Below are positions 3,264 to 52,246 of a DNA stretch of 64,000 bases, in pieces. The notes beneath the pieces were generated by a model. The model was not told where the DNA came from. It searched no databases and worked only from the letters and a program-made list of their open reading frames with translations. A program made the translations under genes and the position numbers. This stretch comes from Dehalococcoidia bacterium (GTDB lineage: Bacteria; Chloroflexota; Dehalococcoidia; Lucifugimonadales; JAGWBF01), in assembly GCA_034422875.1 (NCBI GenBank), contig DAOUJI010000098.1, positions 4,431 to 68,430 on the forward strand, in the 5' to 3' direction. How positions within the stretch are numbered: position 1 is the stretch's first letter; the number at the start of each line of letters is the position of its first letter.

Positions 3264-3438
3264 GTACAAAACGTTTCCGGATTATGGCCTGCCCGGGATG
3301 ATAGCGGAAACGAACTTACTCTCGCTATGAAAAGAACCCTGCCCAGAGACCACACCCTATTGTCTGCTTACGTCTCCGCCATTATGATTGGGACGGCTTG
3401 AAGCCACTGGAACTGGATTAGAGGCTGGTAACCGCTTA

Positions 3439-4224: not shown

Positions 4225-4243
4225 TCAGACCTGAAGAGGAGCA

Positions 4244-5425: not shown

Positions 5426-5467
5426 ACCAATCTTGACGGCCTCCGTGTCCGACTCTGGGAGGCAGCA

Positions 5468-5929: not shown

Positions 5930-6083
5930 TCAGCCGCGTCACTGACGCCTGCTGCTCCTACAACCTCCTGGACTAGCTCCGTCGCAGCGTCGGCGGAGCA
6001 GGCAGCAGTGACAAATCGACCTGTACTTTAATGGCTCAACAGTTATAATTGCATAAAGGCCTAGACGGACTCCAGGAGTTGGA

Positions 6084-12169: not shown

Positions 12170-13132
12170 TCAGAAGGGCAATTCCTGGCCTACTCCCCGT
12201 TCACGGGCCTTCTTATAGACATGGAGGGCCGCCGCCACGTCCTCGATGGCCACTCCCTGAGACTCGAAAAGGGTCACATCCGAAGCGCCCAAACGGCCGG
12301 CCGCCTTCCTGCTCACCAGGTCCGCCAGCGTATTGACCTTGGTCCAGCGGAACGCTCCCCGCTCCGCAGGCCAGATCAGGTCACCGCACTCCGCTTTGGC
12401 CTGGTCGAGATCGTCGACGACGACAACCGATGACTTGGTCACGGTCTCCTCATCGACCTCACGCCTCAGCCAGTGGTTGCCTCCAGCCGCGTTTACGTGC
12501 GCCCCGTCCTTCAACCATTGGCCCAAGAGCACCGGGTCTCTGGAGTCCGTAATCGTAATGGCTACGTCGGCTCCGTGAACGCACTCCTCGGCGGTGTCCG
12601 CCGGAGTCACCTCGACGTCCAAACGCTGGGTCATTCTGGAGGCGAAGGCTTCGCGATTTGCCGGGTTACGGCTGAAGGCACGAATATTCTTTATAGACCG
12701 GACCGCGCATACAGCCTCCAATTGGCTCCTGGCCTGGAATCCCGTGCCGATTATCCCTACGGTCTCTGCTTGCTCGGAAGCCATTAAGCTGGTGGCCAGA
12801 CCGGAGGCTGCTCCGGTCCGTATCTGCCCCAGGTTTCCCGCCTCCATAACGGACAACAGCCCACCGTTTTCGCTGTCGTAAAGCATCATCAGGAACTTGC
12901 TTTCGCCTCGTGGAAAGGTAGTGTAGGCCTTGTAGCCGAACCCTGTCATGTCGGAGGCGACAGCAGCTGCCGACATGACGTGCAGAAAGCCCCTGGGAAG
13001 TCGAATGCGCTTGCGCGGAACGTTCTCAGCCAGTCCGTTGGAGGCGTGCATGAACGCCGTCTCCAATGCTGCAATGCACTCCTTCATGGTCAGCAGTCCC
13101 CGGACTTCGCTTTCATTCAGAAAAAGGGCCAT
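12170..13132 (-). CDS. Ornithine cyclodeaminase / mu-crystallin family protein
   Basis: 320 aa. Rossmann motif VGIIGTGFQARSQLEA and overall OCD/mu-crystallin family pattern. Confidence 0.8.
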   Translation of the reverse strand: MALFLNESEVRGLLTMKECIAALETAFMHASNGLAENVPRKRIRLPRGFLHVMSAAAVASDMTGFGYKAYTTFPRGESKFLMMLYDSENGGLLSVMEAGNLGQIRTGAASGLATSLMASEQAETVGIIGTGFQARSQLEAVCAVRSIKNIRAFSRNPANREAFASRMTQRLDVEVTPADTAEECVHGADVAITITDSRDPVLLGQWLKDGAHVNAAGGNHWLRREVDEETVTKSSVVVVDDLDQAKAECGDLIWPAERGAFRWTKVNTLADLVSRKAAGRLGASDVTLFESQGVAIEDVAAALHVYKKARERGVGQELPF

Positions 13133-13225
13133 CGAGCCTCCAGACGTCAGTCGTTATAAGGGCTTTGTCAACCGAGCGAGCGGTATAGAATAGCGTGAGG
13201 AAAGCTTCATGTCTACCGTTAGGAC

Positions 13226-14194
13226 TCAGGGACTCGTATCCGGCAGATAGGACATGAGGGCGTCGGTGGAGGTATACGTGAACTTGTACCCTGTGTCCCG
13301 TTTCAGCTTGGCAGTGCTCATTATGATTGGATGCCTTACGAAATCCAATCCCACAGAAGGCGAGTCTTTCTGAAGGCCCAGCTTCCACGTCGTCTCCACC
13401 AATCCATAGGCCATGAACGGAGGCAGGAAAACCAGCTTACGATTGGACAACTTGGCCAATCGGCTGTAGTGAATGACCCCGTCTCCAGCTACGTTGTACG
13501 TGCCTGGCAAGGGGTCGTTTATGAAACAGTGAAGTACGGAAGCAAGATCATACTCGTGGACGAACTGCAAGGGCGGGTCCGAGCCGGCAACCCCCAGAAG
13601 CGCTGGCTTGAACAGAGCGCGGGTGACGTAGTTGTCGGCCCCAGGGCCCATGACAACACAGGGTCGGAGCACCGAGACTGTAACGCCGGGGTTTTCAGCA
13701 GCGAAGGTCCCCACCAACTCCTCGGCCATTGACTTGTCCTCTGAGTATTGGAACCTCCTCAATGGACGGACGGAGGCTTCTTCCGTTATGGGTATAGGAT
13801 TGGCCCGTTGCGCTCCGTAGACGGTATGAGAACTGACGTAGACCAGGTTCTTGACCCTGGCGCCCCGACAGGCGTTCAGCACGCTTGTGAGACCCTTCAG
13901 ATTGTTGGCTCTGACCGCTTCTATCTGTTTTCGGGTCCTGCCAGGTTTCAGGATAAAGGCCAAATGCACTACCGTGTCGACATGATGGTCTCGGAACAGG
14001 TCTTCCGTGGCCTGGATGATGTCCATGCGCCGGGCGGTTACGTTGTGAAAGGGAAGGGGAAGAGGCCGATGGTCTATAGCCAGCACCCGGCCCAGTGATT
14101 CATCCTCTTCCAGTTGGGCTAACAGGTTTGTCCCCACATATCCTGAGGCGCCGGTCACTGCCACCACCGCAGGCTTAGTCACGTCTCTTGCCAT
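13226..14194 (-). CDS. NAD-dependent epimerase/dehydratase family protein
   Basis: 322 aa. The N-terminal VAVTGASGYVGTNL (GxxGxxG) is extended-SDR like. Confidence 0.8.
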   Translation of the reverse strand: MARDVTKPAVVAVTGASGYVGTNLLAQLEEDESLGRVLAIDHRPLPLPFHNVTARRMDIIQATEDLFRDHHVDTVVHLAFILKPGRTRKQIEAVRANNLKGLTSVLNACRGARVKNLVYVSSHTVYGAQRANPIPITEEASVRPLRRFQYSEDKSMAEELVGTFAAENPGVTVSVLRPCVVMGPGADNYVTRALFKPALLGVAGSDPPLQFVHEYDLASVLHCFINDPLPGTYNVAGDGVIHYSRLAKLSNRKLVFLPPFMAYGLVETTWKLGLQKDSPSVGLDFVRHPIIMSTAKLKRDTGYKFTYTSTDALMSYLPDTSP

Positions 14195-14402
14195 CTCGCT
14201 TTATTCCCAGCCTCAATCATTCAGTGGGCATTCAGTGGGTGGAAAGCTCCACCCCCAAATCTCTAGTGACGAACCCTTCGATGCCAGCCGAAACTCAGGT
14301 GAACATTCATATCACATTTGTCGCCATGTCGATAGATGTTGTGGCGGGGAATTCAGGCCCCGTTCCGCAGGGGGCGGCGGACTGTCCAGGCGGTTTCAGG
14401 TC

Positions 14403-15296
14403 TCAACGAATCACGGAAGTCGGGTTCCCCATTGGGAGCAGGCTGCGCATCCAGGAGGTGGCAGTGACCAGATACTTCTCCCTGGAAGAAAGGCTCACCC
14501 GTCCTGCGAATACGTCAAAGTTCCTGGCCTCCAACCTGTCGAGTATCTGGCTGTACAGCCGGCCCAAGACAGCAGGGCATGCCCGTTCCCTGGCTGACAG
14601 ATACGGCAGCAACTTGAAGCCACTCTCGAAATAGGTCCGGGCGCGATTCACCTGAAACCTCATGAGATTATTGAAAGGCTCGTTGATTACGCCGTCCCGG
14701 AGTTCGTCTATCGAGTAGCCGAACTCTTCCATCTCGTTAATCGGAATGTAGACCCGGCCGCGCTCCAGGTCCTCCTTGACGTCTCTGAGGATGTTGGTCA
14801 GCTGCATCGCCACGCCTAAGTCTACTGCGTGGCTTTTTGCTTGCTCGTCTGAGTAGCCGAATATCTGGATGCAGCACAGCCCAACCACCGAGGCCACCTT
14901 ATAGCAATAGTCGGTAAGCTCAACGAAGTTGTTGTAGGTGTGCTTGGTCAGGTCGGTTTCGACCCCGGCCACCACCTCCATGAAGTAGTCTTCCGGGATG
15001 CCGAAAGTTGACGCAGTGTCAGCTATGGCGGTGAACACCGGCTCGTCGGCGGGGTCGTCTATTATCCCTTGGTACGCCAGGGACAGCTTACGGCGAATCT
15101 CCGACAGGAGAGCCAGTTTCTCGGCAATGGGAATATCCTCGTCGCTGGCGTCGTCGCAGAGTCGGCAGAAGGCGTAGGAAGCGTAGATGGACCGGCGCTT
15201 TCTGGGAGGAAGCGTGATGAAAGCATAGTAGAAGTTTTTCGCCTCGCGCTTGGCTATGAGGCGACAGACATCATAGGCCAGGTCCACGTCCGCCAT
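14403..15296 (-). CDS. Squalene/phytoene synthase family protein (HpnD/HpnC/CrtB-like; exact member unresolved)
   Basis: 297 aa. Asp-rich motifs YAFCRLCDDASDE and NILRDVKEDLERGRVYIP. Located in the hopanoid cluster. Confidence 0.8.
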   Translation of the reverse strand: MADVDLAYDVCRLIAKREAKNFYYAFITLPPRKRRSIYASYAFCRLCDDASDEDIPIAEKLALLSEIRRKLSLAYQGIIDDPADEPVFTAIADTASTFGIPEDYFMEVVAGVETDLTKHTYNNFVELTDYCYKVASVVGLCCIQIFGYSDEQAKSHAVDLGVAMQLTNILRDVKEDLERGRVYIPINEMEEFGYSIDELRDGVINEPFNNLMRFQVNRARTYFESGFKLLPYLSARERACPAVLGRLYSQILDRLEARNFDVFAGRVSLSSREKYLVTATSWMRSLLPMGNPTSVIR

Positions 15297-15314
15297 GGCG
15301 CATTGGCCCCTTCA

Positions 15315-15896
15315 TCACTGGCCGATAATCTGGACCACCACTTCGCGGGGTCGTGGATGGTCCAATTCAACCACGAAGATGCTTTGCCAGGAGCCGAACA
15401 CCATGCCGCCGTTCGCTATGGGTATGGTCTCGCTGCCTCCCATCAGCAGGTGCTGGCAGTGGGCGTGGCCGTTAGGCGCCTCGTTGTCGGTCATGTTGGC
15501 AGTGCGAATCTCGAAGTCGTTGTGCCGATAGTAGGCGTTCCGCGGCGAAATGCGTTCAAGAAAGTCCTCCATGTCCTGGAGGAGGAGCGGTTCGTTCTCG
15601 TTAATCTTGATGGCGGCGGTCGTGTGCTTGGAATACACGACTACGAACCCGGTTTTCACGCCGGATTCAGCTACGCACTCCCGCACGTGAGACGTTATGT
15701 CCATGAATTCCGGAGCCCGTTCGCTGTGCACCTTTATGCAATAGGTCTTGGACGCCATAGGCCCGGCGTCGGCGCTTTCCAGCTTCTCGGGGCGTGACTC
15801 GGGGACCGAGGCATAGGCTTCAGGACCCCGCTCTTGCGGCATAGAAAACTGAGTCACTGTGTTAGGGGCGACTTCCTCAACAAATCGTTTCACCAT
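15315..15896 (-). CDS. YjbQ/UPF0047 family protein (secondary thiamine-phosphate synthase-like) with an N-terminal extension
   Basis: ORF 15315..15923. ATG at 15896 is preceded by GGAGGATAAT. The C-terminal ~140 aa (ITSHVRECV...TTAAIKINENEP...HCQHLLMG...) match the UPF0047 pattern. About 46 extra N-terminal residues. Confidence 0.75.
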   Translation of the reverse strand: MVKRFVEEVAPNTVTQFSMPQERGPEAYASVPESRPEKLESADAGPMASKTYCIKVHSERAPEFMDITSHVRECVAESGVKTGFVVVYSKHTTAAIKINENEPLLLQDMEDFLERISPRNAYYRHNDFEIRTANMTDNEAPNGHAHCQHLLMGGSETIPIANGGMVFGSWQSIFVVELDHPRPREVVVQIIGQ

Positions 15897-15928
15897 ATTA
15901 TCCTCCGCAGTTCCCGGAAACAACTCTC

Positions 15929-18004
15929 CTAGGTTCCCTTTGATGCTTTTTCCCTATATCGACCCAACGCCATCAGTGGCCATATGTTCCGATACATATG
16001 GTAGTTAATCATGAATCCGGCGGGCATTTCGGTCCCTTGATACCCGTCGTCGGTGGGCTTTGGATAACGGGCCAGCCGTTTCCCGATGCCGTAGCCAGGG
16101 AACCCTGTGCCCGTAAAGTAGGGCTCATCCCAGGAGCCGTCCGAGAGTTGTGTCTCCGCCAGATGCCTTATGCCCCGCTCGGTGGCGGGATGGTCGATTT
16201 CTCCGGCGGACATCAAGGCCAGCAAGGCCCATGATGTCTGCGACGGCGTGGACGGGCCTCGCCCCCGCCACTCCCAGTCCACGTACGATGCGCAGCTTTC
16301 TCCCCAGCCGCCGTCCGGGTTCTGGTGGGTGAGCAGCCAGTCGACGGCCTTCCTAACGTAAGGCTGGCTCATGTCCTCACCTATCGCCTCGAGAGCGGGA
16401 AGGACGGCGCCGGCGCCGTAGATGTAGTTGACGCCCCATCGCCCAAACCAGGGGCCGTCGTCTTCCTGCTCGGACCGGATGTACTCGTACCCTCTCAGGA
16501 GCGGTTCGAAGTCCTTGGTGTAACCAAGCTTGCCCAACGCTTCCAGCACATGGGCCGTCACGTCCACACTGGGTGCGTCCAGAGTTTCTCCGAAGTCGGA
16601 GAAAGGTATCTTGGCCACGTACCCAGCGTCGTTGTCCTTGTCAAAGGCCGCCCAACCCCCGTTGGAGCACTGCATTGCCAGCATCCAGTCAACGCCCTTG
16701 CGAATGGCCTGCGCCTTCCTGGACTCCCCCTCCCTGTCAAGCCGGATGTCCTTCAGGGCTATCAACACTTCCGCCGCGTCGTCCACGTCGGGATAAGTGT
16801 CGTTGGCGAATTCGAAAGCCCATCCGCCCGGCTCCACCCCCTTAACATTTACCTGCCAGTCGCCGCCGGAGGTCACTTGCTCATCAAGCATCCAGGAACC
16901 GGCGCGTTGGAGAGCCGGGTGGTCGGGAGCCATTCCAGAGTCCAATAAACCGATCGCGGCCAGACACGTGTCCCAGACCGGCGACACACAGGCCTGGACC
17001 CTCCATGTGTCGCCTTCCTCGATGCCGAACTTCTCGAAACCCTCGAAGCCCTTCTTCATCACTGGGTGGTCCATCGGCAAACCCATGTGCTTAAGGGCGA
17101 TAAGGGAGTAGACCCACGGGGGTTGAATTCCACCCCATGAACCGTCTTCCTCCTGCCGGGACATTATCCACTCCATGGCCTTTCTGATGGCGCGGTCGCG
17201 CCCCGGCTTGATAGGAAGGCCGTTGTACAGCCTAAGGACCGAATCGGCCATGAGAAGCATCGTTCGCAAAGAGAAGAGCGACTTAGGCTTGCGAAGAGAG
17301 TAGTCCGTGAGTTGGCGGCCATCCGGGTACAACTCGTCGATGGTCGCCCACTTCGGCACAGGCTTGGAGGGTTTCTCTGACAGGATAATGGTCATAGGCA
17401 CGACAGTGGCCCTCGCCCAACTGGAGAACCGGTAGATGTTGAACGGCGCCCACGTGGGGAGCAACACGATCTCAGGCAGCATGGCTGGAGTGCCTTTCCA
17501 CTCCCACTGGCCGAACAACGACAGCCAAATCTTGGTGAATATCCGCACCTGGGGCACTCCGCCCTTGCTTAATATGAAGTCCCTCGCTTTCTTCATCTCC
17601 GGGCGGTCAGCTGAAACCTCTGCCAGCTTCAGTGCAAAGTAGCATTCCACTGATGTCGACACATCTCCTGGCGCCTGGTAGTACTGTCCCCAGGAGCCGT
17701 CCTTTTGCTGGCGGCTGCGGATATGGTTAACCAGCTTGCGCCAACGCTCTTTGTCTTCGACCTCCAGGAAGTAGCTGAGCATCAGGTACTCGGCTTCCAT
17801 AGTGGGGTTGGATTCCAGCTCACCCCACCAGTATCCCTCCGGCCATTGAATCGACAGGAGGAATTTCTGGGATCGTTTGATGGTGTCGTAAGCTCTCTCC
17901 AGGAGGCTCCGTTCCGTTTTTCGGGACAGTTCGACCTTCAAGAGCGGTTTCAAGTGAAGGGCAAACAACGTGCTCTTTTCCTCTTTTCGGGATACTTCAA
18001 CCAT
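15929..18004 (-). CDS. shc: Squalene-hopene cyclase
   Basis: 691 aa. DxDD catalytic motif (PDVDDAAEV) and multiple QW-type repeats (e.g. QNPDGGWGES, QEEDGSWGG). Confidence 0.92.
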   Translation of the reverse strand: MVEVSRKEEKSTLFALHLKPLLKVELSRKTERSLLERAYDTIKRSQKFLLSIQWPEGYWWGELESNPTMEAEYLMLSYFLEVEDKERWRKLVNHIRSRQQKDGSWGQYYQAPGDVSTSVECYFALKLAEVSADRPEMKKARDFILSKGGVPQVRIFTKIWLSLFGQWEWKGTPAMLPEIVLLPTWAPFNIYRFSSWARATVVPMTIILSEKPSKPVPKWATIDELYPDGRQLTDYSLRKPKSLFSLRTMLLMADSVLRLYNGLPIKPGRDRAIRKAMEWIMSRQEEDGSWGGIQPPWVYSLIALKHMGLPMDHPVMKKGFEGFEKFGIEEGDTWRVQACVSPVWDTCLAAIGLLDSGMAPDHPALQRAGSWMLDEQVTSGGDWQVNVKGVEPGGWAFEFANDTYPDVDDAAEVLIALKDIRLDREGESRKAQAIRKGVDWMLAMQCSNGGWAAFDKDNDAGYVAKIPFSDFGETLDAPSVDVTAHVLEALGKLGYTKDFEPLLRGYEYIRSEQEDDGPWFGRWGVNYIYGAGAVLPALEAIGEDMSQPYVRKAVDWLLTHQNPDGGWGESCASYVDWEWRGRGPSTPSQTSWALLALMSAGEIDHPATERGIRHLAETQLSDGSWDEPYFTGTGFPGYGIGKRLARYPKPTDDGYQGTEMPAGFMINYHMYRNIWPLMALGRYREKASKGT

Positions 18005-18018
18005 CTCTTATTCTCTTT

Positions 18019-19002
18019 TTAACAGTAGTTGTGATCCTTGAACCACTTGACTGCTTTCTCCAAGGCGCCTTCCACCGGACTCTGGGGCAGGCCCAGCTCG
18101 TTGACAGCTTTCGCGCAGTCGACATACATGGGCTTTCGGGCCAGCTTGAGGGCTTCCACCGGAATTGCCGGCTCCCGCTTCATGAGTCCGGATTCCACTA
18201 GGCCGTCGAGATAACCTGCCGCCATAGCGACCCAGAAGGGTATCCGAACTTTCGGGGGTCTCCTTCCGGTCAACTCGGCCAGTGTTCTCAGAATCTCCTC
18301 CAGGGACATGTTCCGATTCCCTAGAAGGTAACGCTCTCCCACTCTCCCCCGTTCCAGGGCCAACACGTGGCCCTGTGCCACATCCTCGACATCCACCACG
18401 TTCAGCCCCGTGTTGACGTAGGCGGGAACTTTCCCGTTGAGGGAATCCACCACCACCTTTCCCGAGGGAGTAGGCTTTACGTCCCACGGCCCCACTGGGT
18501 AAGTCGGGTTCACCACCACCGCCGGAAACCCTTTCTCCGCCTGCTCCAGGACCGTTTGTTCCGCCATGTACTTGGACTTCTTGTAGTGGCCTGTCAGTTC
18601 GTCTAGGTCTGGATGGTCTTCTTCCGTCCCCGCTTTGTCTCTGCGGAATTTCACCGTTGAGACGGTGCTGGTGTGCACCACCCGGTCTACCTGGGCCCGG
18701 TCGGCCTCTTCCAGAACGTTCCTAGTCCCCTCGACGTTGACTTCGTAAACATGTTCCGGATTCCTTGACCAGAACGAGTAGACAGCGGCGCAATGAATGA
18801 CAGCGTTGCATCCTTCCAGGGCCGACGCCACGGACTGGCGGTCCGTCACGTCGCCATGAACTGTCTCGACGCCTGTGCCTTCTAGATTTATTAAAGTGCT
18901 CTCCGGTCTTACCAGAGCTTTTGCCTGATGCCCTCGTGTTACGAGGGCTCGGACTACGTTCCCTCCTATGAATCCGGTGGCTCCGGTCACTAATACTTTC
19001 AA
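18019..19002 (-). CDS. hpnA: Hopanoid-associated sugar epimerase (NAD-dependent epimerase family)
   Basis: 327 aa. VLVTGATGFIGGNV Rossmann motif. Position between shc and hpnG/hpnH. Confidence 0.8.
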   Translation of the reverse strand: MKVLVTGATGFIGGNVVRALVTRGHQAKALVRPESTLINLEGTGVETVHGDVTDRQSVASALEGCNAVIHCAAVYSFWSRNPEHVYEVNVEGTRNVLEEADRAQVDRVVHTSTVSTVKFRRDKAGTEEDHPDLDELTGHYKKSKYMAEQTVLEQAEKGFPAVVVNPTYPVGPWDVKPTPSGKVVVDSLNGKVPAYVNTGLNVVDVEDVAQGHVLALERGRVGERYLLGNRNMSLEEILRTLAELTGRRPPKVRIPFWVAMAAGYLDGLVESGLMKREPAIPVEALKLARKPMYVDCAKAVNELGLPQSPVEGALEKAVKWFKDHNYC

Positions 19003-19003
19003 G

Positions 19004-19735
19004 TTACGGCCTGCTCAGAGCCACGTCCCTTCTGCCATGTGTCGTCTGCGTCATTATTGAAATATAAGCTTGCAGGAACCTTTCCAAAGCACTCGCCGCT
19101 CTGGACGCCCCTGCTCCCAAAGCCATCAGAGCCGGAACATGCCAGGGATGAGTGACGGCATAAGCCAGCCCCGACACGGCCTGGCGCGCGTGTGAAACGC
19201 CTCCGATGGCCGCCACGGGCGGCGGAACACGCTGGTCTGCGGAATCCACGATCGCTCTCACGCTGATGAAAGGAACTCCGAGGCGGGATGCTTCTTTCGC
19301 AAAATAGTAGTCTTCCATGGTCACGAAAGAGGCCCCAGTGCGGTCGAACAGGTCGCGTTTGTCAGATAGAGTGCACACCGGACGGCGGGACGTATACTCG
19401 GGTAATGATCGGCAACCCGATTCCGAAGCTACGGTCTCAACGGCGTCCAGCATCTCCCGGTCGCACCCGATTGGAGGACCGCCCTCTTCATGAATCCGGG
19501 TTGCTGTCACCAAGTCCCCCGGCTTGAGGGACGGGTCCAAGCCTCCGGCGAACCCGAACGCCATGATGCAGTCCACGTTCTGTGAAGCCTCAGTCAACTG
19601 CGGCAATGAAAAGCCCGAGGGCCACGGCCCCACTCCGGTGACGATCGATTCGGCATCTACGTCGGCCAAAGCGAGTCCCCGTCGAAGGACCCTCTCCTCC
19701 CGCACCATCGGCGTCAAGAATACAGTTCGAGACAT
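19004..19735 (-). CDS. hpnG: Hopanoid-associated phosphorylase/nucleosidase (PNP/UDP family)
   Basis: 243 aa with a PNP_UDP-like pattern (AFGFAGGL...). 1-nt gap to hpnA and 3-nt gap to hpnH. Confidence 0.7.
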   Translation of the reverse strand: MSRTVFLTPMVREERVLRRGLALADVDAESIVTGVGPWPSGFSLPQLTEASQNVDCIMAFGFAGGLDPSLKPGDLVTATRIHEEGGPPIGCDREMLDAVETVASESGCRSLPEYTSRRPVCTLSDKRDLFDRTGASFVTMEDYYFAKEASRLGVPFISVRAIVDSADQRVPPPVAAIGGVSHARQAVSGLAYAVTHPWHVPALMALGAGASRAASALERFLQAYISIMTQTTHGRRDVALSRP

Positions 19736-19738
19736 ACG

Positions 19739-20827
19739 CTACCCGGCCGTAATCCCGCTCTTGCCGACAGCGCCGGACTTGATGAGGGTTACCCAATCCC
19801 TGGGACTGCTGACTGCGTTGAAGATGGTGGCCGACTCGAACCCGCAGTGCATCATGCATCCGGAGCACCTCGGGTCCCGTCCCACACCGTATTTCTCGTT
19901 CCACAACGAGGCGTCGTAAAGCTCGTCCACGTTCTGCACGTGCTCATCGGCCAGGGGATAGCAAGGCTTCCTCCAACCCATCACTGTGTAGGTCGGGTTC
20001 GACCAGGCGGTGCATTGGTATTCCCGCTTTCCCCGCAGGAAATCCAGGTAGATGGGGTTGTTGTACATCTTCAGGCCCTTGATGGCCCTTTCGTCCAGGA
20101 TTTCCTTAAAGGCGTCGTTGGATTCCTTTCTTGTGAGGAAGATGTCGTGGTCCGGGGCGTGGGTGTAGTCGTAGCCCGGCGACACCATGCAGCCTTCCAC
20201 GCCCAAGTCAGTCATCTTCTTGAAGAGGGTGTGCATGTCGTCCACGTCCACTCCCCGGTAGATGGTGGAGTTGGTGCATACCCGGTAACCCGAATCGAGA
20301 GCGACTTCGATGGCTTTGAGGGCCCTCTTGAAGACGCCCTTCCGGGCCACCGCCTCGTCATGTTTCTCTTCCATACCGTCCATGTGGACGACCCATGAGA
20401 GGTACTTGGAAGGCGGCACTTTCTTCATGACTCTTTCGAGGAGCAGTCCGTTGGTGCAGCAGTAGACGAAATACTTTCGCCGTACCAGCTCGTTGATAAT
20501 CTCGTCTATCTTGGGATGGATGGTGGGTTCTCCACCGGCTATAGAGACGATGGGGGCGCCCGACTCCTCAACGGCCCTGACGCACTCGTCGACGTCCATC
20601 ATCTTGTCCATTACAGGCTTGTACTCGTGGATGCGGCCACACCCAACGCAGGCCAGGTTGCACATCTCCAACGGTTCGAGCATCGTCACTAAGGGAAACC
20701 GCTTCTTTCCCTTTAGGCGGTTGCTGACCATGTACCAAGCCAACTTGACGGACATTACCATCGGCCTGGAAGCCCGTTTCCTAGGGCGAACGTCTATCTC
20801 TTCCTGAAGTTCTTCAACCGCCTTCAA
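19739..20827 (-). CDS. hpnH: Adenosyl-hopene transferase (radical SAM)
   Basis: 362 aa. Radical-SAM CNLACVGCG (CxxxCxxC) and conserved HpnH-like length and C-terminus. Confidence 0.88.
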   Translation of the reverse strand: MKAVEELQEEIDVRPRKRASRPMVMSVKLAWYMVSNRLKGKKRFPLVTMLEPLEMCNLACVGCGRIHEYKPVMDKMMDVDECVRAVEESGAPIVSIAGGEPTIHPKIDEIINELVRRKYFVYCCTNGLLLERVMKKVPPSKYLSWVVHMDGMEEKHDEAVARKGVFKRALKAIEVALDSGYRVCTNSTIYRGVDVDDMHTLFKKMTDLGVEGCMVSPGYDYTHAPDHDIFLTRKESNDAFKEILDERAIKGLKMYNNPIYLDFLRGKREYQCTAWSNPTYTVMGWRKPCYPLADEHVQNVDELYDASLWNEKYGVGRDPRCSGCMMHCGFESATIFNAVSSPRDWVTLIKSGAVGKSGITAG

Positions 20828-20848
20828 TGCATACGCTCCATCAACGAA

Positions 20849-21988
20849 TTATGACTGACGTTCCACCAGGAACTCAGCCATTTGCTCCAGTTCTCTCATA
20901 GCCCAGGGACTCAGACCAGCCTCCCTCGCGTGTCCAAGCGCCAGCCCGGCAGCCCTGCGGGTGTCCGACATGGAATATTCTTCAGCATTCAGTTCTGACA
21001 GAACATCAAGGACGTCGTCCACGTCCCGTTCGTCCACTTCCTCACCGCTGTACACTTCCATTAGCCTCTTTAAGGCCGGACCTTCCGCTGTTCCCAAGGC
21101 AAAGACTATAGGGAAGGACTTCTTCTTCCTTCTGATGTCGTTGCCCACAGACTTGCCGGTGTTGATCTCGTCTCCCCAGATGCCCAGGTGGTCGTCCCGT
21201 ATCTGGAAGGCGCGCCCCAGGTAAGCCCCCATCTGGGCGAAATGGTGCACGGAGTCCTCGTCGTCAGTCCCTATCAGCGCCCCCATCTCCATGCCGCACC
21301 TGATAAGGGCGCCGGTCTTGCAGGCGATCATCCCAAGATAGTCTTCCAACCTGATGTCCAGACGCCCCTCGAAGGACAGGTCCATGCATTGTCCTCGAAT
21401 CATGTCCAGGTACGCCTGTGTCAGCAAACTGGAGGCCCTGAGGACTTTTTGCTCGGGCAGTCCCGCTCCCCTTAGAGCAGACATATCCGCCAGAGAACGC
21501 ATGGCGTTTCCGGCCGTGATGGCCTGGGGCTGCCCCCACAAGACCCAGAGTGTTGGCCTGTGCCTCCGCTCCGTGTCTCCATCTTGTATGTCGTCGTGGA
21601 TAAGTGAAAAATTATGGACTAATTCAAGAGCGACTGCGGCGGGCATTGCCTGTTCCCAGCCGCCCGAATAGGCCTCGCAGGAGAACAGGCAAAGGGTGGG
21701 CCTGAGGGCCTTCCCAGCCGAAACCCGCTCTTCCAACAACTCTCCCTCTTCGTTCGCCCAACCCAGATGGTAGAGCATCATCGTGTAAAGGTCGGAGGCG
21801 TCGCCGCCTGAATCGTTCACTGGAGCGATCGAACGTCGGATTGCAATCTCCAGGTCCTCGTTGTAGCGAGAAAAGAACGAAGGAACGGAAGGCCCTACAA
21901 CGCCTTCCGCGCCGGACTTTGCTGTCTTAACCCTACCCACTCCAGCCATAAGATGTCCCAGAAAGGGATACATCGCAAGACGATGCAC
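20849..21988 (-). CDS. Polyprenyl diphosphate synthase family protein (chain length unresolved)
   Basis: 379-aa ORF. First Asp-rich motif LIHDDIQD, second IRDDHLG. The start codon is uncertain (N-terminal extension). First gene of the hopanoid cluster. Confidence 0.8.
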   Translation of the reverse strand: MHRLAMYPFLGHLMAGVGRVKTAKSGAEGVVGPSVPSFFSRYNEDLEIAIRRSIAPVNDSGGDASDLYTMMLYHLGWANEEGELLEERVSAGKALRPTLCLFSCEAYSGGWEQAMPAAVALELVHNFSLIHDDIQDGDTERRHRPTLWVLWGQPQAITAGNAMRSLADMSALRGAGLPEQKVLRASSLLTQAYLDMIRGQCMDLSFEGRLDIRLEDYLGMIACKTGALIRCGMEMGALIGTDDEDSVHHFAQMGAYLGRAFQIRDDHLGIWGDEINTGKSVGNDIRRKKKSFPIVFALGTAEGPALKRLMEVYSGEEVDERDVDDVLDVLSELNAEEYSMSDTRRAAGLALGHAREAGLSPWAMRELEQMAEFLVERQS

Positions 21989-29390: not shown

Positions 29391-30107
29391 CTATTCAGCC
29401 TCGTCGTCGTCCGCACCCGCCTCCAACACCTTGTCCACGAACTCCTCTTCTGAAACGGCCCCCACTAGCTGGGCCTTGGGTAGGACTCCAAGCTTGCTCT
29501 CCTGGGTGATGACCGTCTTGGGAACGCCACGCACCTGGTACGTCTGGGCCAAGGCGGGGAATTCCTCCACCTCGATCACGTCGGCGGTTACGTTGGCGTT
29601 CTCCAACGCTATGGCGTGTGCAATCCGCGCCACACCGGGGCAGAAGCCGCACGACGGAGTCACAAACACCCGGATATGCACTGGTTTGCTGACCTTCTTG
29701 AGCTTTCTGCGGGAGTCCATGGACAGTGGACTAACGCCCCTGGATATGGTCTTGATGCCCGCTACGATAGTTGGGAATTCGAGGCCAGCCGGCAGTCCAT
29801 AGAACTTCAGACGTCCGTCGTTGTCGTCTCCCAGAACGATGGCCGGTATCTGCTCTATCCCGTACTTCTGCCTCTCCTCCGACTGGCTGTAGACGTCCAC
29901 GATGTCCAGGTGCAGTTTGGGGGAAAGGGACGTAAGCTCTTCCATAAGCTGCTGCGTCTGTGGGCAGTATCGGCACTCCCGCCCGGGGATGGTCAGCAGC
30001 GAGGAGCCCTGGGAAAAAAGCTTGATGGTTACCTCGTTCTTGAGGTCTTTGCGGAGTTCCCTTTTCAGGGAGTCCCTGTCTTTGTCCGGAATTATGGGCA
30101 TGTCCAA
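29391..30107 (-). CDS. Two-domain thioredoxin-fold protein disulfide oxidoreductase (PDO/glutaredoxin-like)
   Basis: 238 aa with two CxxC sites (CRYCPQ and CGFCPG), one in each half. Confidence 0.75.
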   Translation of the reverse strand: MDMPIIPDKDRDSLKRELRKDLKNEVTIKLFSQGSSLLTIPGRECRYCPQTQQLMEELTSLSPKLHLDIVDVYSQSEERQKYGIEQIPAIVLGDDNDGRLKFYGLPAGLEFPTIVAGIKTISRGVSPLSMDSRRKLKKVSKPVHIRVFVTPSCGFCPGVARIAHAIALENANVTADVIEVEEFPALAQTYQVRGVPKTVITQESKLGVLPKAQLVGAVSEEEFVDKVLEAGADDDEAE

Positions 30108-30269: not shown

Positions 30270-31328
30270 ATGACCCTTAACTCCGACTCCCTTGTCTCCA
30301 GCCGCGTGGACGTCGCAGGCGACTTGGATGACGCCATCGAGATGTGCTACCAGAAGGGATGGACCGACGGCCTACCCGTGGTCCCCCCAACGGAAGAGAA
30401 AGTGCTCCGGTTCCTGGAGTTCGTGGAACGCGATCCATCGGACGTCATTGGAATAGAACCGGTGCGGGGCCGTGTCGTAACTGCGGAGAAGGTGGCCATC
30501 AACGCCGTAATGGCCGGATGCAAGCAAGAGTACATGCCCATCATCATGGCCTGTGTGGAGGGAATGGTCTTGCCTGAGTACAACCTCCACGGGAGCTCCG
30601 CCAGCACGGGAGGCTCGGCGCCCCTGCTCATCATCAACGGACCCATACGACAGAAACTGGGCTTTGCCTCGGGCAACAACCTCTTCGGCCCAGGACCTGA
30701 CCGCCGCCCCAACGCCACGGTGGGCCGGGCCATCAGGATGATTCTCATCAACGTGCTGGAGAACCACCCCGGAGTCCTGGACCGCTCCACACTAGGTCAT
30801 CCCGGCAAGTACAGCTTCTGCATAGCCGAGGACGAGGAAAACAGCCCCTGGGAACCTCTCCACGTGGAAAAGGGGTTCGACGCTGACGCCAGCACGGTGA
30901 CGGTGGCCGCTTCTCACGGCCCGCAGCAAATGGGCGTAGTCTGGGAAGGGACTCCCGAGGCCATGCTCATCAACATCGCCGACACCATGCTGGGCATCAT
31001 GCCGAGGCAGGGCGAGGTCATACTGGTCATGTCGATCGAACACAGCCACCTGTACAAGGACGCGGGGTGGTCCAAGCAGCAGGTGAAGCAGTTCGTCTAC
31101 GACCACGCCTGCCGCACCCACGAAGAATACGCGCGGGTGAAGAAGGTCGACCCACCTGAGCCCGGCCAGGAGAAGGAGCTTATCCACGCCATCGAGACCC
31201 CCGACGCCCTCACCCTGATTTCCGGCGGCGGCGCGGGAGGCCCTTGGGACTGCATCATCACCCGATGGGGCCGGGGCGTCACGTCCAAGTCCATTACCAA
31301 GCAGATAGACACCAGCAAGATTCTTTAG
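30270..31328 (+). CDS. Conserved hypothetical protein (no function recognised)
   Basis: C-terminal 352 aa of the 570-aa ORF 29616..31328. The upstream part of that ORF is antisense to the PDO gene and is rejected. ATG at 30270. Sequence ...QKGWTDGLPVVPPTEEKV...AINAVMAGC...NLHGSSASTGGSAPLLIINGP... looks like a real conserved protein. Confidence 0.6.
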   Translation: MTLNSDSLVSSRVDVAGDLDDAIEMCYQKGWTDGLPVVPPTEEKVLRFLEFVERDPSDVIGIEPVRGRVVTAEKVAINAVMAGCKQEYMPIIMACVEGMVLPEYNLHGSSASTGGSAPLLIINGPIRQKLGFASGNNLFGPGPDRRPNATVGRAIRMILINVLENHPGVLDRSTLGHPGKYSFCIAEDEENSPWEPLHVEKGFDADASTVTVAASHGPQQMGVVWEGTPEAMLINIADTMLGIMPRQGEVILVMSIEHSHLYKDAGWSKQQVKQFVYDHACRTHEEYARVKKVDPPEPGQEKELIHAIETPDALTLISGGGAGGPWDCIITRWGRGVTSKSITKQIDTSKIL

Positions 31329-31374: not shown

Positions 31375-31404
31375 TTGGCCGGGTGGCCCGGCAAATGGTA
31401 TAAT
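31375..31404 (+). promoter_or_regulatory. Candidate strong promoter of the selenoprotein gene
   Basis: TTGGCC (31375-31380), an 18-nt spacer, then an extended -10 TGgTATAAT (31396-31404). GGAGGAGG Shine-Dalgarno lies at about 31449-31456, before the ATG at 31461. Confidence 0.45.
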
Positions 31405-31460
31405 CCGGCGAAGAAACCGCGAACGCGAGGGCGCCGTCAAAAGACGGAAGAGGAGGCGCT

Positions 31461-32000
31461 ATGACAACCGGGCTCAGAATTCTGGACCCCACGGTGGAGG
31501 CCCTGCCCGACACCACCCTGATGGCCGAAAGGCCCAAGAACCTGAACGGGCTGAAAGTCGGCCTGCTCTCCAACGGCAAGAGGAACGCCGAAGAACTCCT
31601 GGAGGCCGTCGTAGCCCTGCTGCAGGACACCTACGAGCTTGGTGAGATTCACCGCTACAACAAGAGGGACGCCTCCAGGCCCTGCCCACAGAACATCATG
31701 GACGAGCTACTGGAGAAGTGCGACATTGCAATTGTCGCAACAGGTGATTGAGGCTCCTGCTCCTCGTGCAGTGTGCACGACGGCATCACCATCGAGAAGG
31801 CTGGAAAGCCTGCGGCGGTTATATGCACGGAACCCTTCATCCCAACCGGGCGAGCCATCGCCAAGATACGGGGCATCGAGGACTATCCCTTGTCCATAGT
31901 CCCGCACCCAGTTGGAAGCCTTGACGAGGACGGAGTCATGCTCCGCGCACGGCAGGCCCTGCCCCGCATCATGGAGATACTCCAGGGCCGGAACGTTTAG
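31461..32000 (+). CDS. UGSC-motif (seleno)protein, UGA at 31749-31751 read as selenocysteine
   Basis: ORFs 31461..31751 and 31773..32000 are in the same frame and separated only by a single TGA. Read-through gives ...DIAIVATGD-U-GSCSSCSVHDGITIEKAGKPAAVICTEPF..., 179 aa. A SECIS-like hairpin follows. The second half has no plausible independent start or RBS. Confidence 0.75.
31762..31782 (+). other. SECIS-like recoding hairpin downstream of the UGA
   Basis: TCGTGCA (31764-31770), loop GTG, TGCACGA (31774-31780), plus a possible C-G closing pair (31762/31782). The apical loop starts 19 nt after the UGA. Confidence 0.5.
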
Positions 32001-32070
32001 CCCGGCCCTTCTCCTCATACGGCTCCTCCCGCCCTAAATGTCCGTACGAGCGGAAGTGAATAGCGGCATG

Positions 32071-32112
32071 AAAGATTTGAGGCCCTGAATCAGGGCCTCA
32101 AATCTTTTTCTT
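32071..32112. terminator. Intrinsic terminator between convergent genes (stronger on + strand)
   Basis: Perfect 17-bp stem AAAGATTTGAGGCCCTG / CAGGGCCTCAAATCTTT (32071-32087 / 32091-32107) with a 3-nt loop, running into TTTTTCTTG. Confidence 0.8.
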
Positions 32113-49411: not shown

Positions 49412-52246
49412 ATGCCGTCCCAACCAGGGAACATGGAGACAGTCCGTGAGGAGGTGGTCAACACTCTTCTTGCTCAGTCGCTCCGTGAGCATGGGCTGTC
49501 GGCAAGGGGAGAACGTCGTAGTCGGCAACACATTCCCGACTTACGGGTCGAGTTGAGAACCAAAGACCTTGTACTGTTGGAGTGCAAGTGGGAAGGGTCA
49601 ACAGGGCCTCTACAAGACCAACTACAAGAACGCTTGACACATTTCCCAACCGCTCTAGCCGTATGTGGCGTACTCTATCCAGACCGGTTACGACACTTCG
49701 AGAACACCAAAGAAGCGCTTGACGCCGCGACAGACCTACAGTGGTGGTTGTACGGCTCCCGCGGTGTAGCTTCATCGGACATCCGCATACGAACAGGGTC
49801 GGTGGCCGAGCTTGCCAACCATCTACGCACCCTTCCTCTGGCACTGGAGGGCATCGACCGAGTCGCGGCGGCGGCTGGCGTCATAGGATACGCCATCGAA
49901 CAGGCGGCTCAAGCAATTGGGGATCACGCCAGAATCTCCCGCCGCATCGCCGACATTATTGCCGACACAGACCAGGAGAAAAATCGCCAAGCCGCACTTC
50001 GCATAGGGTGTTTGGTCCTTTTCAACGCCATCGCATTTCAAGACCGTCTAGCTGCCGCAAACCACGATGTCCCGACTGTCAACGAATCCCAACGAGAAGG
50101 AATCTCGGGACTAAAAGACGCTTGGCGAGATATTTGTAACAACATAGACTACGTGCCTGTCTTCGAGCTAGCAGCAGACATTCTGGACGTGCTTAGTGAT
50201 GGGCCGTCCGAGTTGCATACATCAGTCACCGCTCCTCTTGTCAAAGCTATGGAAGACACCCACAGGCTGGAGGGACACGATCTGTCGGGACGGCTATTCC
50301 ACACCCTGCTAACCGACGCTAAATTCACTGGAGCCTACTACACGTCCGTCCCTGCAGCTACCCTCCTGTCCAGACTGGTGTTCCACAACTGGCCTCCGAA
50401 CATTGATTGGAAGGACCACGAGTTCCCTGCGTCACTTAACGTCGCAGACCTGGCATGCGGCACCGGTACGTTGCTAATGGCCGTGGCTTCCGAAGTCGAA
50501 CGACTGCACACCCATGCGGGAGGTCGACGCGCCGCGGATCTGCATAAAGCTATGGTAGAACAAGCGCTTCATGGTTATGACGTACAGCTTTCGGCTGTTC
50601 ATTTCGCAGCCACCAGCTTGGCCATGCTCAACCCCAACATACAGTTCGACCGAATGAATCTCTACGTGATGCCCATAGGAGCTGACAGTGCCAAAGTGTC
50701 ACTCGGGTCGCTTGATTTCCTTGGGGTTGACGAGGCAGCAGTCCAATTCGCATTATCTGCAGAAGGGATGGGAAGCAACGCACTAAGCGCGACCAGCGCC
50801 GAACAGGTGTCAGGTAGCGGTCCGAAAGGAGCCGAAGAAGGCGTAACAGCCAAGTTGCCGGACTTGGATCTGGCAATTATGAACCCTCCTTTCACACGCT
50901 CGGTAGGCGGCAACCTACTATTCGGCAGCCTGCCTCAGACAGACCGTCGGAAACTTCAGGACGAGCTATCTCGTCGATTGAAGTCACGGCAAGCATCCGC
51001 AACCGCAGGCCTTGGCGCGGCCTTTGTTGCTGCAGCTTCGCCTAAATTGCGGCCGGGCGAAGGACGATTGGCCCTAGTGCTGCCTGCCACCGTTTGCACC
51101 GGGCCATCATGGGAGCAGACTCGCTCTCTTATTGAAAAGGACTTTGTCCTAGACATGGTAATCACGTCCCACGACCCTCTGCGATGGAACTTCTCAGACA
51201 GCACTGACTTGTCCGAAGCCCTGTTAGTAGCAACTCGGCGGCCCGAGATCAACGACACCGTCGACCACCGGACTGTCTTTGTAAATCTCTGGCAAAACCC
51301 GGACGGAGTGTTGGACGCTCACAGAGTTGCCCAAGCGGTCACGTCGACCACTCCGGCTAGACTGGAAGAGGCGGGCACTGCACTACTGGAAGTTGACGGA
51401 CATCACATCGGAGAATTGTTTGCCATCCTGGAATCCAAAGTCGCCGGAACGAAGTGGGCCGGGGTGCAATTCGCTCGCGGTGACATGGTGCGCTCTGCCC
51501 TTAAGCTACTGGATGGCAGCGAAGTCTGGATCCCGGGCGAGACAGAGTCGGCCATCATTCCTTTGTGTCGCCTGGATGAACTTGGAGAAGTAGGACCCGA
51601 TAGACGTGATGTCTGGGATGGATTTGAACGAACAGACGCTGTCACAGCTTATCCGATGGTCGAGAACCACGACACGAACGCAAGAAAGCACTTGACGACC
51701 AATCCCGACAAATACCTGTCCCCACTCTCTCAAGCTCGTCCGGGCCGTCAACTGAAGCGGATCGAACAACTATGGCCAAAGGCAGGGAGACTCTTCATCG
51801 CTGAACGGCTGCGCCTTGATACCACTAGAATTATCGCCATGTGGTCGGAATCCAGAGCTCTGTCCAACGTATGGTGGCCGATCCGAGTCGAAGACAACTC
51901 GGTAGAGAAAGCACTTACCGTTTGGTTGAATTCAAGCTTGGGCTTGCTCACGATTCTGGCACGAAGGACCAGCACTGAGGGCGGATGGGTGGCTATGAAG
52001 AAAGCTGACTTGGAAGAAATGCCAGTCCTCGACGTGCGCCTCCTTGCGGAGTCGCAGCTTCAGAGTCTAACTGACTTGTTCGACTCACTGGCTGAAGAGG
52101 AATTCGAACGGCTGCCTGGAATGGACCATTGCCCGGTGCGACGAGCACTGGACGACGGAATCTCCCAAATTCTCGACCTGCCTGACCTCGCCAACCTTCG
52201 CAGTCTTCTGGCATCCGAACCAGTAGTGTCCAACAGAAGATTATAG
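49412..52246 (+). CDS. Single-chain PD-(D/E)XK nuclease + N6-adenine-type methyltransferase fusion (Type IIG/IIL restriction-modification-like)
   Basis: 944 aa. N-terminal IPDLRVEL...LVLLECKWE (D43, E57, K59; nt 49538-49588). Motif I VADLACGTGTLL (about nt 50445-50480). Motif IV NPPF (nt 50881-50892). Long C-terminal region of unknown fold. Confidence 0.6.
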   Translation: MPSQPGNMETVREEVVNTLLAQSLREHGLSARGERRSRQHIPDLRVELRTKDLVLLECKWEGSTGPLQDQLQERLTHFPTALAVCGVLYPDRLRHFENTKEALDAATDLQWWLYGSRGVASSDIRIRTGSVAELANHLRTLPLALEGIDRVAAAAGVIGYAIEQAAQAIGDHARISRRIADIIADTDQEKNRQAALRIGCLVLFNAIAFQDRLAAANHDVPTVNESQREGISGLKDAWRDICNNIDYVPVFELAADILDVLSDGPSELHTSVTAPLVKAMEDTHRLEGHDLSGRLFHTLLTDAKFTGAYYTSVPAATLLSRLVFHNWPPNIDWKDHEFPASLNVADLACGTGTLLMAVASEVERLHTHAGGRRAADLHKAMVEQALHGYDVQLSAVHFAATSLAMLNPNIQFDRMNLYVMPIGADSAKVSLGSLDFLGVDEAAVQFALSAEGMGSNALSATSAEQVSGSGPKGAEEGVTAKLPDLDLAIMNPPFTRSVGGNLLFGSLPQTDRRKLQDELSRRLKSRQASATAGLGAAFVAAASPKLRPGEGRLALVLPATVCTGPSWEQTRSLIEKDFVLDMVITSHDPLRWNFSDSTDLSEALLVATRRPEINDTVDHRTVFVNLWQNPDGVLDAHRVAQAVTSTTPARLEEAGTALLEVDGHHIGELFAILESKVAGTKWAGVQFARGDMVRSALKLLDGSEVWIPGETESAIIPLCRLDELGEVGPDRRDVWDGFERTDAVTAYPMVENHDTNARKHLTTNPDKYLSPLSQARPGRQLKRIEQLWPKAGRLFIAERLRLDTTRIIAMWSESRALSNVWWPIRVEDNSVEKALTVWLNSSLGLLTILARRTSTEGGWVAMKKADLEEMPVLDVRLLAESQLQSLTDLFDSLAEEEFERLPGMDHCPVRRALDDGISQILDLPDLANLRSLLASEPVVSNRRL

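Follow-up and report, generated by a model that had tools for sequence, protein, structure and literature searches.

Proteins containing the UGSC motif have been known since 2007-2008 (Zhang & Gladyshev; PMC1976440, PMC2398784). In ocean and freshwater metagenomes they form one of the five or six commonest selenoprotein families, with 255 selenocysteine (Sec) forms and 21 cysteine (Cys) forms in the Global Ocean Sampling (GOS) metagenomes (PMC2398784). Their fold was called "likely Trx-like" (thioredoxin-like) in 2008, when fusion of UGSC to an unknown domain, "Unknown_1", had already been noted (PMC2398784), and a 2026 review lists UGSC among the prokaryotic selenoproteins with largely uncharacterized functions (PMC13188914). 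In the present work, a UGSC gene at 31461..32000 was analyzed in a 64,000-nucleotide stretch of DNA (hereafter the window) from a Dehalococcoidia bacterium (assembly GCA_034422875.1, contig DAOUJI010000098.1). The analysis points to an in-frame UGA decoded as Sec and to a protein that probably serves as redox module of the 352-aa product of the adjacent gene.

Two further systems are close to this locus. Insertion of Sec depends on a selenocysteine insertion sequence (SECIS), and the bacterial model specifies an apical loop of 3-9 nt, an upper stem of 4-16 bp, a G at the first or second loop position with G or U as the usual next base, a distance of 16-37 nt from UGA to loop, and a minimum free energy of at most -7.5 kcal/mol (PMC13188914). 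In fdhF of E. coli, the arrangement TGA-CACGGCCCATCGGTTGCA-GGTC-TGCACC, with 18 nt to the loop, was present in 5,419/5,426 genomes. The other system is selenoprotein B of the glycine, betaine, sarcosine and D-proline reductases, whose GrdB and PrdB forms occur in amino-acid-fermenting clostridia. The companion proteins GrdE and PrdA of these enzymes carry Cys-derived pyruvoyl cleavage sites.

Gene structure and family assignment

The open reading frames (ORFs) 31461..31751, with 96 codons before the TGA, and 31773..32000, both on the forward strand, shared a common frame in which TGA 31749-31751 was the sole interruption. The read-through product comprised 179 aa (...CDIAIVATGD-U-GSCSSCSVHDGITIEKAGKPAAVICTEPF...), with the sequence ...IVATGD-U-GSCSSCSVHDGITIEK... 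around Sec97. As for the second ORF, its GTG "start" at 31773 spanned the end of the loop (one base) and the beginning of the 3' arm (two bases) of the hairpin that follows the UGA, and no Shine-Dalgarno sequence was read before GTG 31773. The complete gene was preceded by a sigma-70-type promoter with -10 TATAAT at 31399-31404, TG at 31396-97 and 10/12 consensus matches, and both hexamers were unchanged in the window and in the related loci L001 and L004. The preliminary description of this DNA, which was made from the letters alone, had reported the common frame with a single TGA between the two ORFs, the 179-aa read-through, the stem TCGTGCA/TGCACGA with its GTG loop 19 nt after the UGA, the second half without ribosome-binding site and with a GTG start inside the hairpin, and the near-consensus extended -10 promoter. 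All of these were reproduced on the sequence, and the coordinates of the stem were exact. A Shine-Dalgarno sequence was likewise present, but the letters given for it were one base off, since the site reads AGAGGAGG and not GGAGGAGG.

The family of the read-through protein was determined by profile scans, with Cys substituted for Sec. On NF041046 "UGSC family (seleno)protein" of NCBIfam it reached 147.2 bits (curated cut-off 125), and on PF24696 "UGSC" of Pfam 190.1 bits (cut-off 25), so that the family name and the length of about 180 aa given in the preliminary description both held. It also shares with the family U-G-S-C at the Sec/Cys column and a predicted SECIS after the UGA. The gene at 31461..32000 is a new member of an already catalogued and curated family, and is not new as such; because the family is known and curated, this locus alone would be no surprise to a specialist. 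Nothing essential separates it from other members, among which Sec forms prevail in aquatic organisms of Chloroflexota type and Cys forms in Actinomycetota; the window copy comes from an uncultured Dehalococcoidia and is truncated in public annotation.

The window is part of ENA scaffold ERZ23495130 scaffold_353 (150.6 kb), and its nearest relatives were Dehalococcoidia metagenome-assembled genomes (MAGs). In the public annotation of this scaffold, the UGSC gene ended at the UGA (96 aa, PF24696) and a 103-aa antisense ORF, almost certainly spurious, was called instead over the remaining half, in agreement with the earlier expectation that standard gene callers would split or truncate the gene. 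Orthologs suffered the same mis-annotation and were stored as fragments of 96-99 aa that stop exactly at ...GD. These entries are gene-caller truncations, because each matching locus keeps a conserved in-frame continuation of 79-82 codons. Homologs truly ending at GD, which would have spoken for a genuine stop according to the preliminary description, were not found among these entries, and every such locus continued in frame.

Recoding of the in-frame UGA

A total of 72 related loci from species-representative genomes were compared, some regions being fetched twice. The Sec column was TGA in 47/47 loci of Chloroflexota (Dehalococcoidia, SAR202) and Dormibacterota, at protein identities of 33-98%, and TGC or TGT in 23/23 loci of Actinomycetota and Alphaproteobacteria. 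Homologs with Cys at the column of the UGA, which had been proposed earlier as a check, were thus found in 23 genomic loci, and CGSC also stood at the aligned position in the full-length database homologs P0003 and P0012-14. Downstream of the TGA, an ORF of 79-82 codons was kept in 29/29 Sec-form genes examined. The third codon position took 54% of the substitutions downstream of the TGA and 52% upstream, in the same frame. The conserved ORF and this substitution pattern show that the region after the TGA is translated in this frame.

The stop codons of the 50 publicly called genes of the window were TAG (22), TGA (17) and TAA (11). TGA thus serves this organism as a regular stop codon under a standard code, and the UGA at 31749 needs a local signal. 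These results suggested that the in-frame UGA 31749-31751 is almost certainly a real Sec codon, and the comparative evidence for recoding was judged decisive. One full-length UGSC protein of the public databases (P0001, GD-W-GSC) carries Trp in the column of the Sec; its W is most likely a TGA translated under genetic code 4 by the annotation pipeline.

Hairpin downstream of the UGA

The 21-nt hairpin alone had a free energy of -8.9 kcal/mol (z = -2.4), and its loop began 19 nt after the UGA. The segment 31764-31780 satisfied 4/4 constraints of the published bacterial SECIS model (loop GUG, 7 bp, 19 nt, -8.9 kcal/mol), which bears out the SECIS-like hairpin of the preliminary description. In the Rfam gathering scan of the window, only a tRNA-Leu was reported and no general bacterial SECIS model fired.

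The sequence of the hairpin was strongly constrained. Among 18 Dehalococcoidia genes, the third-position entropy was 0 at codons +5 to +9, compared with a gene mean of 1.19 bits. These codons (TCG/ACG TGC AGT GTG/ATG CAC) formed the most constrained 6-codon stretch of the UGSC gene, in contrast to the freely varying Gly and Ser codons immediately before them. Across 31 distinct Sec-form sequences, 97.2% of the cells were paired and double-sided changes were found in 4/7 pairs (L045, L052, L064); this level of pairing and covariation was reached by 0/500 shuffles, and slid registers were only 3-66% paired. The individual changes were instructive. L045 carried CCUGCA-GUA-UGCAGG, in which a His-to-Gln change was compensated by a synonymous Ser change. 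In L052 (CGGCCA-GUG-UGGCCG) the peptide had become AASVAD, and in L064 (GUCGUGG-CUUGU-CCACGAC) it had become TSWLVHD, with the pairing kept in both; L038 contained one G-U wobble pair in the stem. As a control, the same register was read in both forms of the gene: 6-7 of 7 pairs were formed in 30/30 Sec forms, while 7/7 pairs were formed in 0/23 Cys forms and 6/7 pairs in 2/23. L064 (5001..10295), from a groundwater Chloroflexi MAG, held two tandem UGSC-partner pairs, and its first copy combined the TGA with the divergent motif U-G-T-C-T-S-W, a 7-bp stem and the CUUGU loop.

The resemblance to the SECIS of E. coli fdhF, which the preliminary description had also noted, is real: fdhF has UGA, 18 nt and then UGCA-GGUC-UGCA. 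Both hairpins lie within the coding sequence right after the UGA, start the loop with G and have UGCA...UGCA flanks. They differ in that the fdhF loop starts 18 nt past the UGA and that of the window 19 nt past it, and in that fdhF has a GGUC loop and a bulged U, whereas the window has a 3-nt loop (GUG/GUA) on a perfect 7-bp stem. Unlike fdhF, the window hairpin also lacks a conserved extended lower helix, and such a helix was unsupported by RNAalifold on the Sec-form alignment.

Selenocysteine tRNA in related genomes

A tRNA-Sec of 98 nt with anticodon UCA, an 8-bp acceptor stem and a 5-bp T stem was detected by ARAGORN in the fetched loci. Its distance to the UGSC gene was 119 nt in L038 and about 1 kb in L046 and L047 (0.1-1.2 kb overall). 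The position of selC beside UGSC in these three Chloroflexota MAGs constitutes a physical link of selC with a selenoprotein gene. By scans with exact patterns, more than 110 loci with tRNA-Sec were recovered, almost all of them from Chloroflexota genomes, and the complete pattern scan found it in five MAGs with the TGA form of UGSC (OZ252049, JBJLGX01, PBDP01, CAYPDR01 and VFFS01). A tblastn comparison of E. coli SelA, SelB and SelD with the window and with the fetched loci (0.86 Mb) gave no matches, a result that the short flanks make uninformative. Two loci, L105 (2847..2941 and 7155..7252) and L177 (1853..1947; CBDFJT010000002.1), showed one complete tRNA-Sec plus copies of the 3' part only. 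The 3'-part copies were joined to unrelated 5' sequence, the pattern of an element integrated into selC with duplication of the attachment site.

Relationship to protein B and predicted fold

The window protein matched TIGR01917 (GrdB) with 23.8 bits (cut-off 602.2; E 1.9e-5), residues 72-153 being aligned to model positions 321-397. Scores of 18.8 bits on TIGR01918 (cut-off 65.45) and 14.8 bits on PrdB (TIGR04483; cut-off 300) were also obtained, and 25/54 members of the UGSC family matched GrdB and 13/54 matched PrdB. For the reciprocal comparison, a C-terminal segment of GrdB was used whose identity the TIGR01917 scan confirmed (296.7 bits, model 282-430); it matched the UGSC model with E 7.3e-8. 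Alignment of UGSC with this segment by hhalign gave 91.7% probability and E 7.8e-7, with ATGD-U-GSCSSC placed on LTST-U-GTCTRC, so that Sec97 coincided with the catalytic Sec and the UxxCxxC motifs of the two proteins were superposed; EKAGKPAAVICT was also paired with ERAGIPVVHICT and PHPVGS with PHPLGN. The reciprocal hidden Markov model matches and the Sec-on-Sec alignment identify UGSC as a free-standing homolog of the Sec domain that forms the C-terminal part of protein B in the glycine, betaine, sarcosine and D-proline reductases. Since its score of 24 bits lies far below the cut-off of 602, it is a remote homolog and not a member of the protein B families. In the literature found on UGSC and on GrdB/PrdB, the families were listed separately and no connection was drawn.

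The likeness to GrdB, GrdH, GrdF and PrdB (TIGR01917, TIGR01918, TIGR04483) extends residue for residue over U-x-x-C-x-x-C, includes the motifs E(K/R)AG-P-(I)CT and PHP-G, and is shared in that a second protein is needed. The differences are equally clear. Of the 431 positions of the GrdB model, UGSC covers no more than about 80-100, the N-terminal approximately 280 residues being absent, no GrdA, GrdC, GrdD, GrdE or PrdA genes lie near UGSC, and its partner is unrelated. The hosts also differ from the clostridia named above, being Actinomycetota, Alphaproteobacteria and SAR202-type Chloroflexota. Actinomycetota UGSC forms without the third Cys (CGSCSATT) were found.

The AlphaFold (AF2) model of the Cys-form homolog P0003, with a predicted local distance difference test score (pLDDT) of 91.5, was a beta-alpha-beta sandwich with a parallel sheet, in which the Sec/Cys position lay where strand 3 passes into helix 3. 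Flavodoxin-like domains were the best neighbours in the PDB, with a template modelling score (TM) of about 0.5, and no thioredoxin-fold protein was among the 50 structure matches listed for this model. The fold of UGSC is therefore predicted to be flavodoxin/Rossmann-like and not thioredoxin-like. A U/CxxC pair at a strand-to-helix junction is also a feature of the thioredoxin-fold redoxins, from which UGSC differs by its predicted parallel-sheet sandwich. No sequence similarity of UGSC to thioredoxin or peroxiredoxin families was detected in the Pfam and NCBIfam scans, and PDB sequence searches with single sequences and profiles of UGSC and of its partner returned nothing significant.

The adjacent partner gene

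The gene at 30270..31328 encodes the 352-aa partner, which gave no Pfam or NCBIfam match, even when 54 aligned members were scanned at permissive thresholds. A homolog adjoined UGSC on the same strand in 64/72 loci across four phyla, upstream in most loci and downstream in nine. It was the sole recurrent neighbour, and no other conserved neighbours of the UGSC-partner pair were observed. An exhaustive profile search returned 7,418 cluster representatives at E <= 1e-3. Asp33, Cys84, Arg153 and Glu187 were invariant in 69 copies, and Cys184 was present in 65.

The AlphaFold model of the partner was of high quality (pLDDT 92.3, predicted TM 0.92), and comparison with the PDB yielded no convincing solved relative. 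Class I fumarate hydratase (E 1.8e-3, TM 0.29) and Toblerone-fold hydrolases (TM <= 0.3) were considered for its fold and rejected as weak. The partner did not match the N-terminal part of GrdB, for which an unvalidated query was used.

Many long members of the partner family were natural fusions, and the fused modules were all thiol or selenol redox modules (Table 1). They included whole UGSC, UGSC halves that end at or begin after the Sec position, AhpC/TSA CxxC redoxins, and in one protein the catalytic domain of ferredoxin:thioredoxin reductase (FTR). In the AhpC/TSA fusions, the CxxC domain takes the N-terminal position that is held by UGSC in other partner fusions. The AhpC/TSA and FTR fusions suggest that UGSC does the same job, the supply of reducing equivalents to a client enzyme. 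The kind of fusion reported as UGSC/Unknown_1 in 2008 is confirmed by these database sequences, and from the fusions found Unknown_1 is most likely the partner family.

Table 1. Positions of the UGSC gene, its signals and neighbouring elements in the window, with tRNA-Sec genes of related loci and fusion proteins of the partner family
Feature	Sequence	Position	Strand	Remarks
Partner gene, 352-aa protein, unannotated family	window	30270..31328	+	synteny, fusions
Sigma-70-type promoter of UGSC gene	window	31375..31404	+	-35 TTGGCC (31375-80), 18-nt spacer, extended -10
Shine-Dalgarno GAGGAGG	window	31450..31456	+	4 nt before ATG; conserved in L001 and L004
UGSC-family selenoprotein gene	window	31461..32000	+	179 codons including predicted Sec97, ATG start, TAG 31998-32000
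UGA, almost certainly read as Sec97, first of U-G-S-C-S-S-C	window	31749..31751	+	TGA/Cys alternation; aligns with catalytic Sec of GrdB
Predicted SECIS hairpin	window	31764..31780	+	7-bp stem UCGUGCA (31764-31770)/UGCACGA (31774-31780), loop GUG 31771-31773
Antisense 103-aa ORF, public gene call	window	31707..32018	-	overlaps C-terminal half of UGSC gene
18-bp perfect hairpin followed by U-run	window	32070..32108		-32 kcal/mol, z = -8.25
tRNA-Sec near UGSC, Chloroflexota MAG	L038	5656..5753		
tRNA-Sec near UGSC, Chloroflexota MAG	L046	6637..6734		
tRNA-Sec near UGSC, Chloroflexota MAG	L047	6503..6600		
Fusion UGSC + partner	P0297, P0330, P0339, P0353, P0357, P0393			
Fusion partner + N-terminal UGSC half	P0261, P0268			UGSC half ends ...GD (Sec form cut at UGA)
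Fusion C-terminal UGSC half + partner	P0271, P0275			
Fusion AhpC/TSA CxxC redoxin + partner	P0303, P0323, P0372			
Fusion UGSC + partner + FTR catalytic domain	P0315			PF02943, E 1.4e-16

Other features of the window

Downstream of the UGSC gene, the hairpin at 32070..32108 is likely a bidirectional intrinsic terminator between UGSC and a convergent ABC ATPase gene, although it was not listed by the rule-based terminator scan of the window. The divergent neighbour at 29391..30107 on the reverse strand encoded a two-domain protein disulfide oxidoreductase (PDO) that matched TIGR02187 "PDO_seleno_TRX" with 225 bits. This gene was an all-Cys form (CRYC, CGFC), and the short name of the model implies selenoprotein members. 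In L004, the region 2700..6000 contained a transposase-like ORF and a luciferase-like oxidoreductase in place of the partner and PDO genes; similarity to the window resumed just upstream of the -35 box, after the rearrangement.

Elsewhere, a 944-aa ORF at 49412..52246 on the forward strand (937-944 aa in the public call) had no Pfam match. A hopanoid-type cluster occupied one strand at about 12170..21988 (reverse), with a squalene-hopene cyclase at 15929..18004 and also a squalene/phytoene synthase, a radical-SAM protein with DUF3463, a PNP_UDP-family protein, epimerases and a polyprenyl synthase.

Discussion

The best overall explanation of these results, to which we assign a probability of about 0.85, is that 31461..32000 encodes a UGSC selenoprotein whose Sec97 is inserted through the SECIS after the UGA and which acts as the redox module of the 352-aa partner. 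Following the established bacterial mechanism, the complex SelB-GTP-Sec-tRNASec is predicted to be recruited by the loop of 31764-31780 and would deliver Sec to the UGA 31749-31751 in the A site, giving Sec97. Sec97 and Cys100 would then cycle between the selenol/thiol and the selenenylsulfide states. UGSC would be dedicated to the enzyme encoded by 30270..31328, for which the invariant Cys84, Asp33, Arg153 and Glu187 are the candidate active-site residues, and it may pass reducing equivalents to, or resolve an intermediate on, the Cys84 site. Re-reduction could be performed by donors of the thioredoxin or ferredoxin:thioredoxin reductase type. The preliminary description had called the protein "presumably redox", a view that gains support from the fusion partners and from the relationship with the Sec domain of GrdB/PrdB.

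Several observations weigh against this explanation. As to the machinery, the search for selA, selB, selC and selD was negative over the window and about 7 kb of adjoining scaffold (some 6 kb on the upstream side and 1.7 kb on the downstream side), and the four closest genomes, OZ240207, OZ244780, CBDCZB01 and CBDEGP01, were not reached by the exact-match tRNA-Sec patterns. The Sec machinery of the window's own lineage is therefore inferred. As to the hairpin, it is short and its sequence is partly dictated by the conserved peptide (S/T)-C-S-(V/M)-H, and folding of 42-65-nt segments of the single sequence gave z values of -0.4 to -0.8, which are not significant. With single-sequence fold statistics this unremarkable, the case for the hairpin rests on comparison. 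In addition, a Cys-form UGSC gene of uncultured Actinomycetes (L054, about 5277..5325) carries CGTGCA-CGA-TGCACG in the SECIS register; it could be a relic from a Sec form that recently turned into a Cys form, or else a side effect of the codons for TCTMHD. As to the partner, UGSC has its own promoter here, 132 nt after the partner gene, and in L004, a 96%-identical relative, the partner no longer adjoins UGSC. The partner family (7,418 clusters) also looks larger than UGSC, for which 434 matches were obtained in a different type of search, and many partners therefore probably work with other redox modules.

Three other accounts of the UGA and the hairpin were weighed. If the UGA were a true stop in a pseudogene or split gene, a 96-residue N-terminal fragment and possibly a separate C-terminal fragment would be made, as the public gene calls have it, and the absence of Sec machinery from the window would need no explaining. 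Such decay is scarcely credible for a codon that is TGA in every Chloroflexota and Dormibacterota locus down to 33% identity and is followed by coding-type substitutions, the more so as the second half has no ribosome-binding site and its sole candidate start lies inside the hairpin, the Cys forms are single polypeptides, fusion proteins end exactly at ...GD or restart after it, and tRNA-Sec stands beside orthologs. Downstream hairpins are in general able to stimulate read-through, and the W of P0001 could be taken to mean that the TGA is reassigned to Trp or Gly, or suppressed by near-cognate tRNA-Trp or tRNA-Cys with stimulation by the hairpin, all without selenium. We consider this exceedingly improbable: TGA ends 17/50 window genes under a standard code, the column holds only TGA or Cys codons, as is classic for a Sec/Cys position, the hairpin agrees with the SECIS model of the SelB type, and tRNA-Sec is present in related MAGs. 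It is also very unlikely that the hairpin is without RNA function and merely a by-product of self-complementary codons for the peptide (S/T)CS(V/M)HD. The palindrome xCG TGC Axx xTG CAC G does follow in part from the amino acids, and L054 offers an example among the Cys forms. Yet Ser, Cys, Ser, Val and His are each written with a single codon (TCG, TGC, AGT, GTG, CAC) in 18/18 Dehalococcoidia beside freely varying Ser and Gly codons, Cys-form genes use other codons for the same residues and lose the pairing, and where the peptide differs, as in L052 and L064, the pairing is rescued by double substitutions, or, as in the His-to-Gln change of L045, by a compensating synonymous Ser change.

The chief competing mechanism is a different chemistry for the same selenoprotein, which we regard as rather unlikely. 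As in protein B, Sec97 would attack a carbon of a substrate activated by the partner to form a selenoether, which Cys100 would resolve to a selenenylsulfide; the outcome would be reductive C-N or C-X cleavage, with the partner as substrate-binding subunit. The homology with GrdB/PrdB, Sec on Sec and UxxCxxC on UxxCxxC, speaks for it, as does the obligatory second subunit, reminiscent of GrdE and PrdA, and the invariant Ala-Gly-Cys84 of the partner could in principle, by analogy with these proteins, be a pyruvoyl cleavage site. The partner, however, resembles neither the N-terminal part of GrdB nor any NCBIfam model, those of the glycine and proline reductase components included, the Pfam lists of the window contain no domain of GrdA, GrdC, GrdD or PrdA type, and the third Cys is missing from Actinomycetota forms. 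An ordinary AhpC/TSA CxxC redoxin moreover replaces UGSC in some fusions, and a generic redox relay fits this exchange better than specialised selenoether chemistry.

The redox-module reading can be extended to the family as a whole. There is perhaps an even chance that UGSC and its partner constitute a widespread, undescribed two-component (seleno)thiol-dependent enzyme, in which a catalytic subunit of unsolved fold (about 7,400 clusters) is served by interchangeable modules (UGSC, AhpC/TSA-like or small CxxC) and is in some lineages wired to ferredoxin via an FTR-like domain, and in which UGSC either branched off from the Sec domain of clostridial glycine/proline reductase or gave rise to it. 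What this work contributes is the link of UGSC to the GrdB/PrdB Sec domain, to a flavodoxin-like fold, to a partner of unsolved fold and to module-swapping fusions. These four links turn an "unknown redox protein" into the hypothesis of a two-subunit reductase with named candidate catalytic residues. If UGSC and its partner do form a two-component enzyme, the identity of the substrate would give a function to one of the commonest selenoprotein families of aquatic metagenomes.

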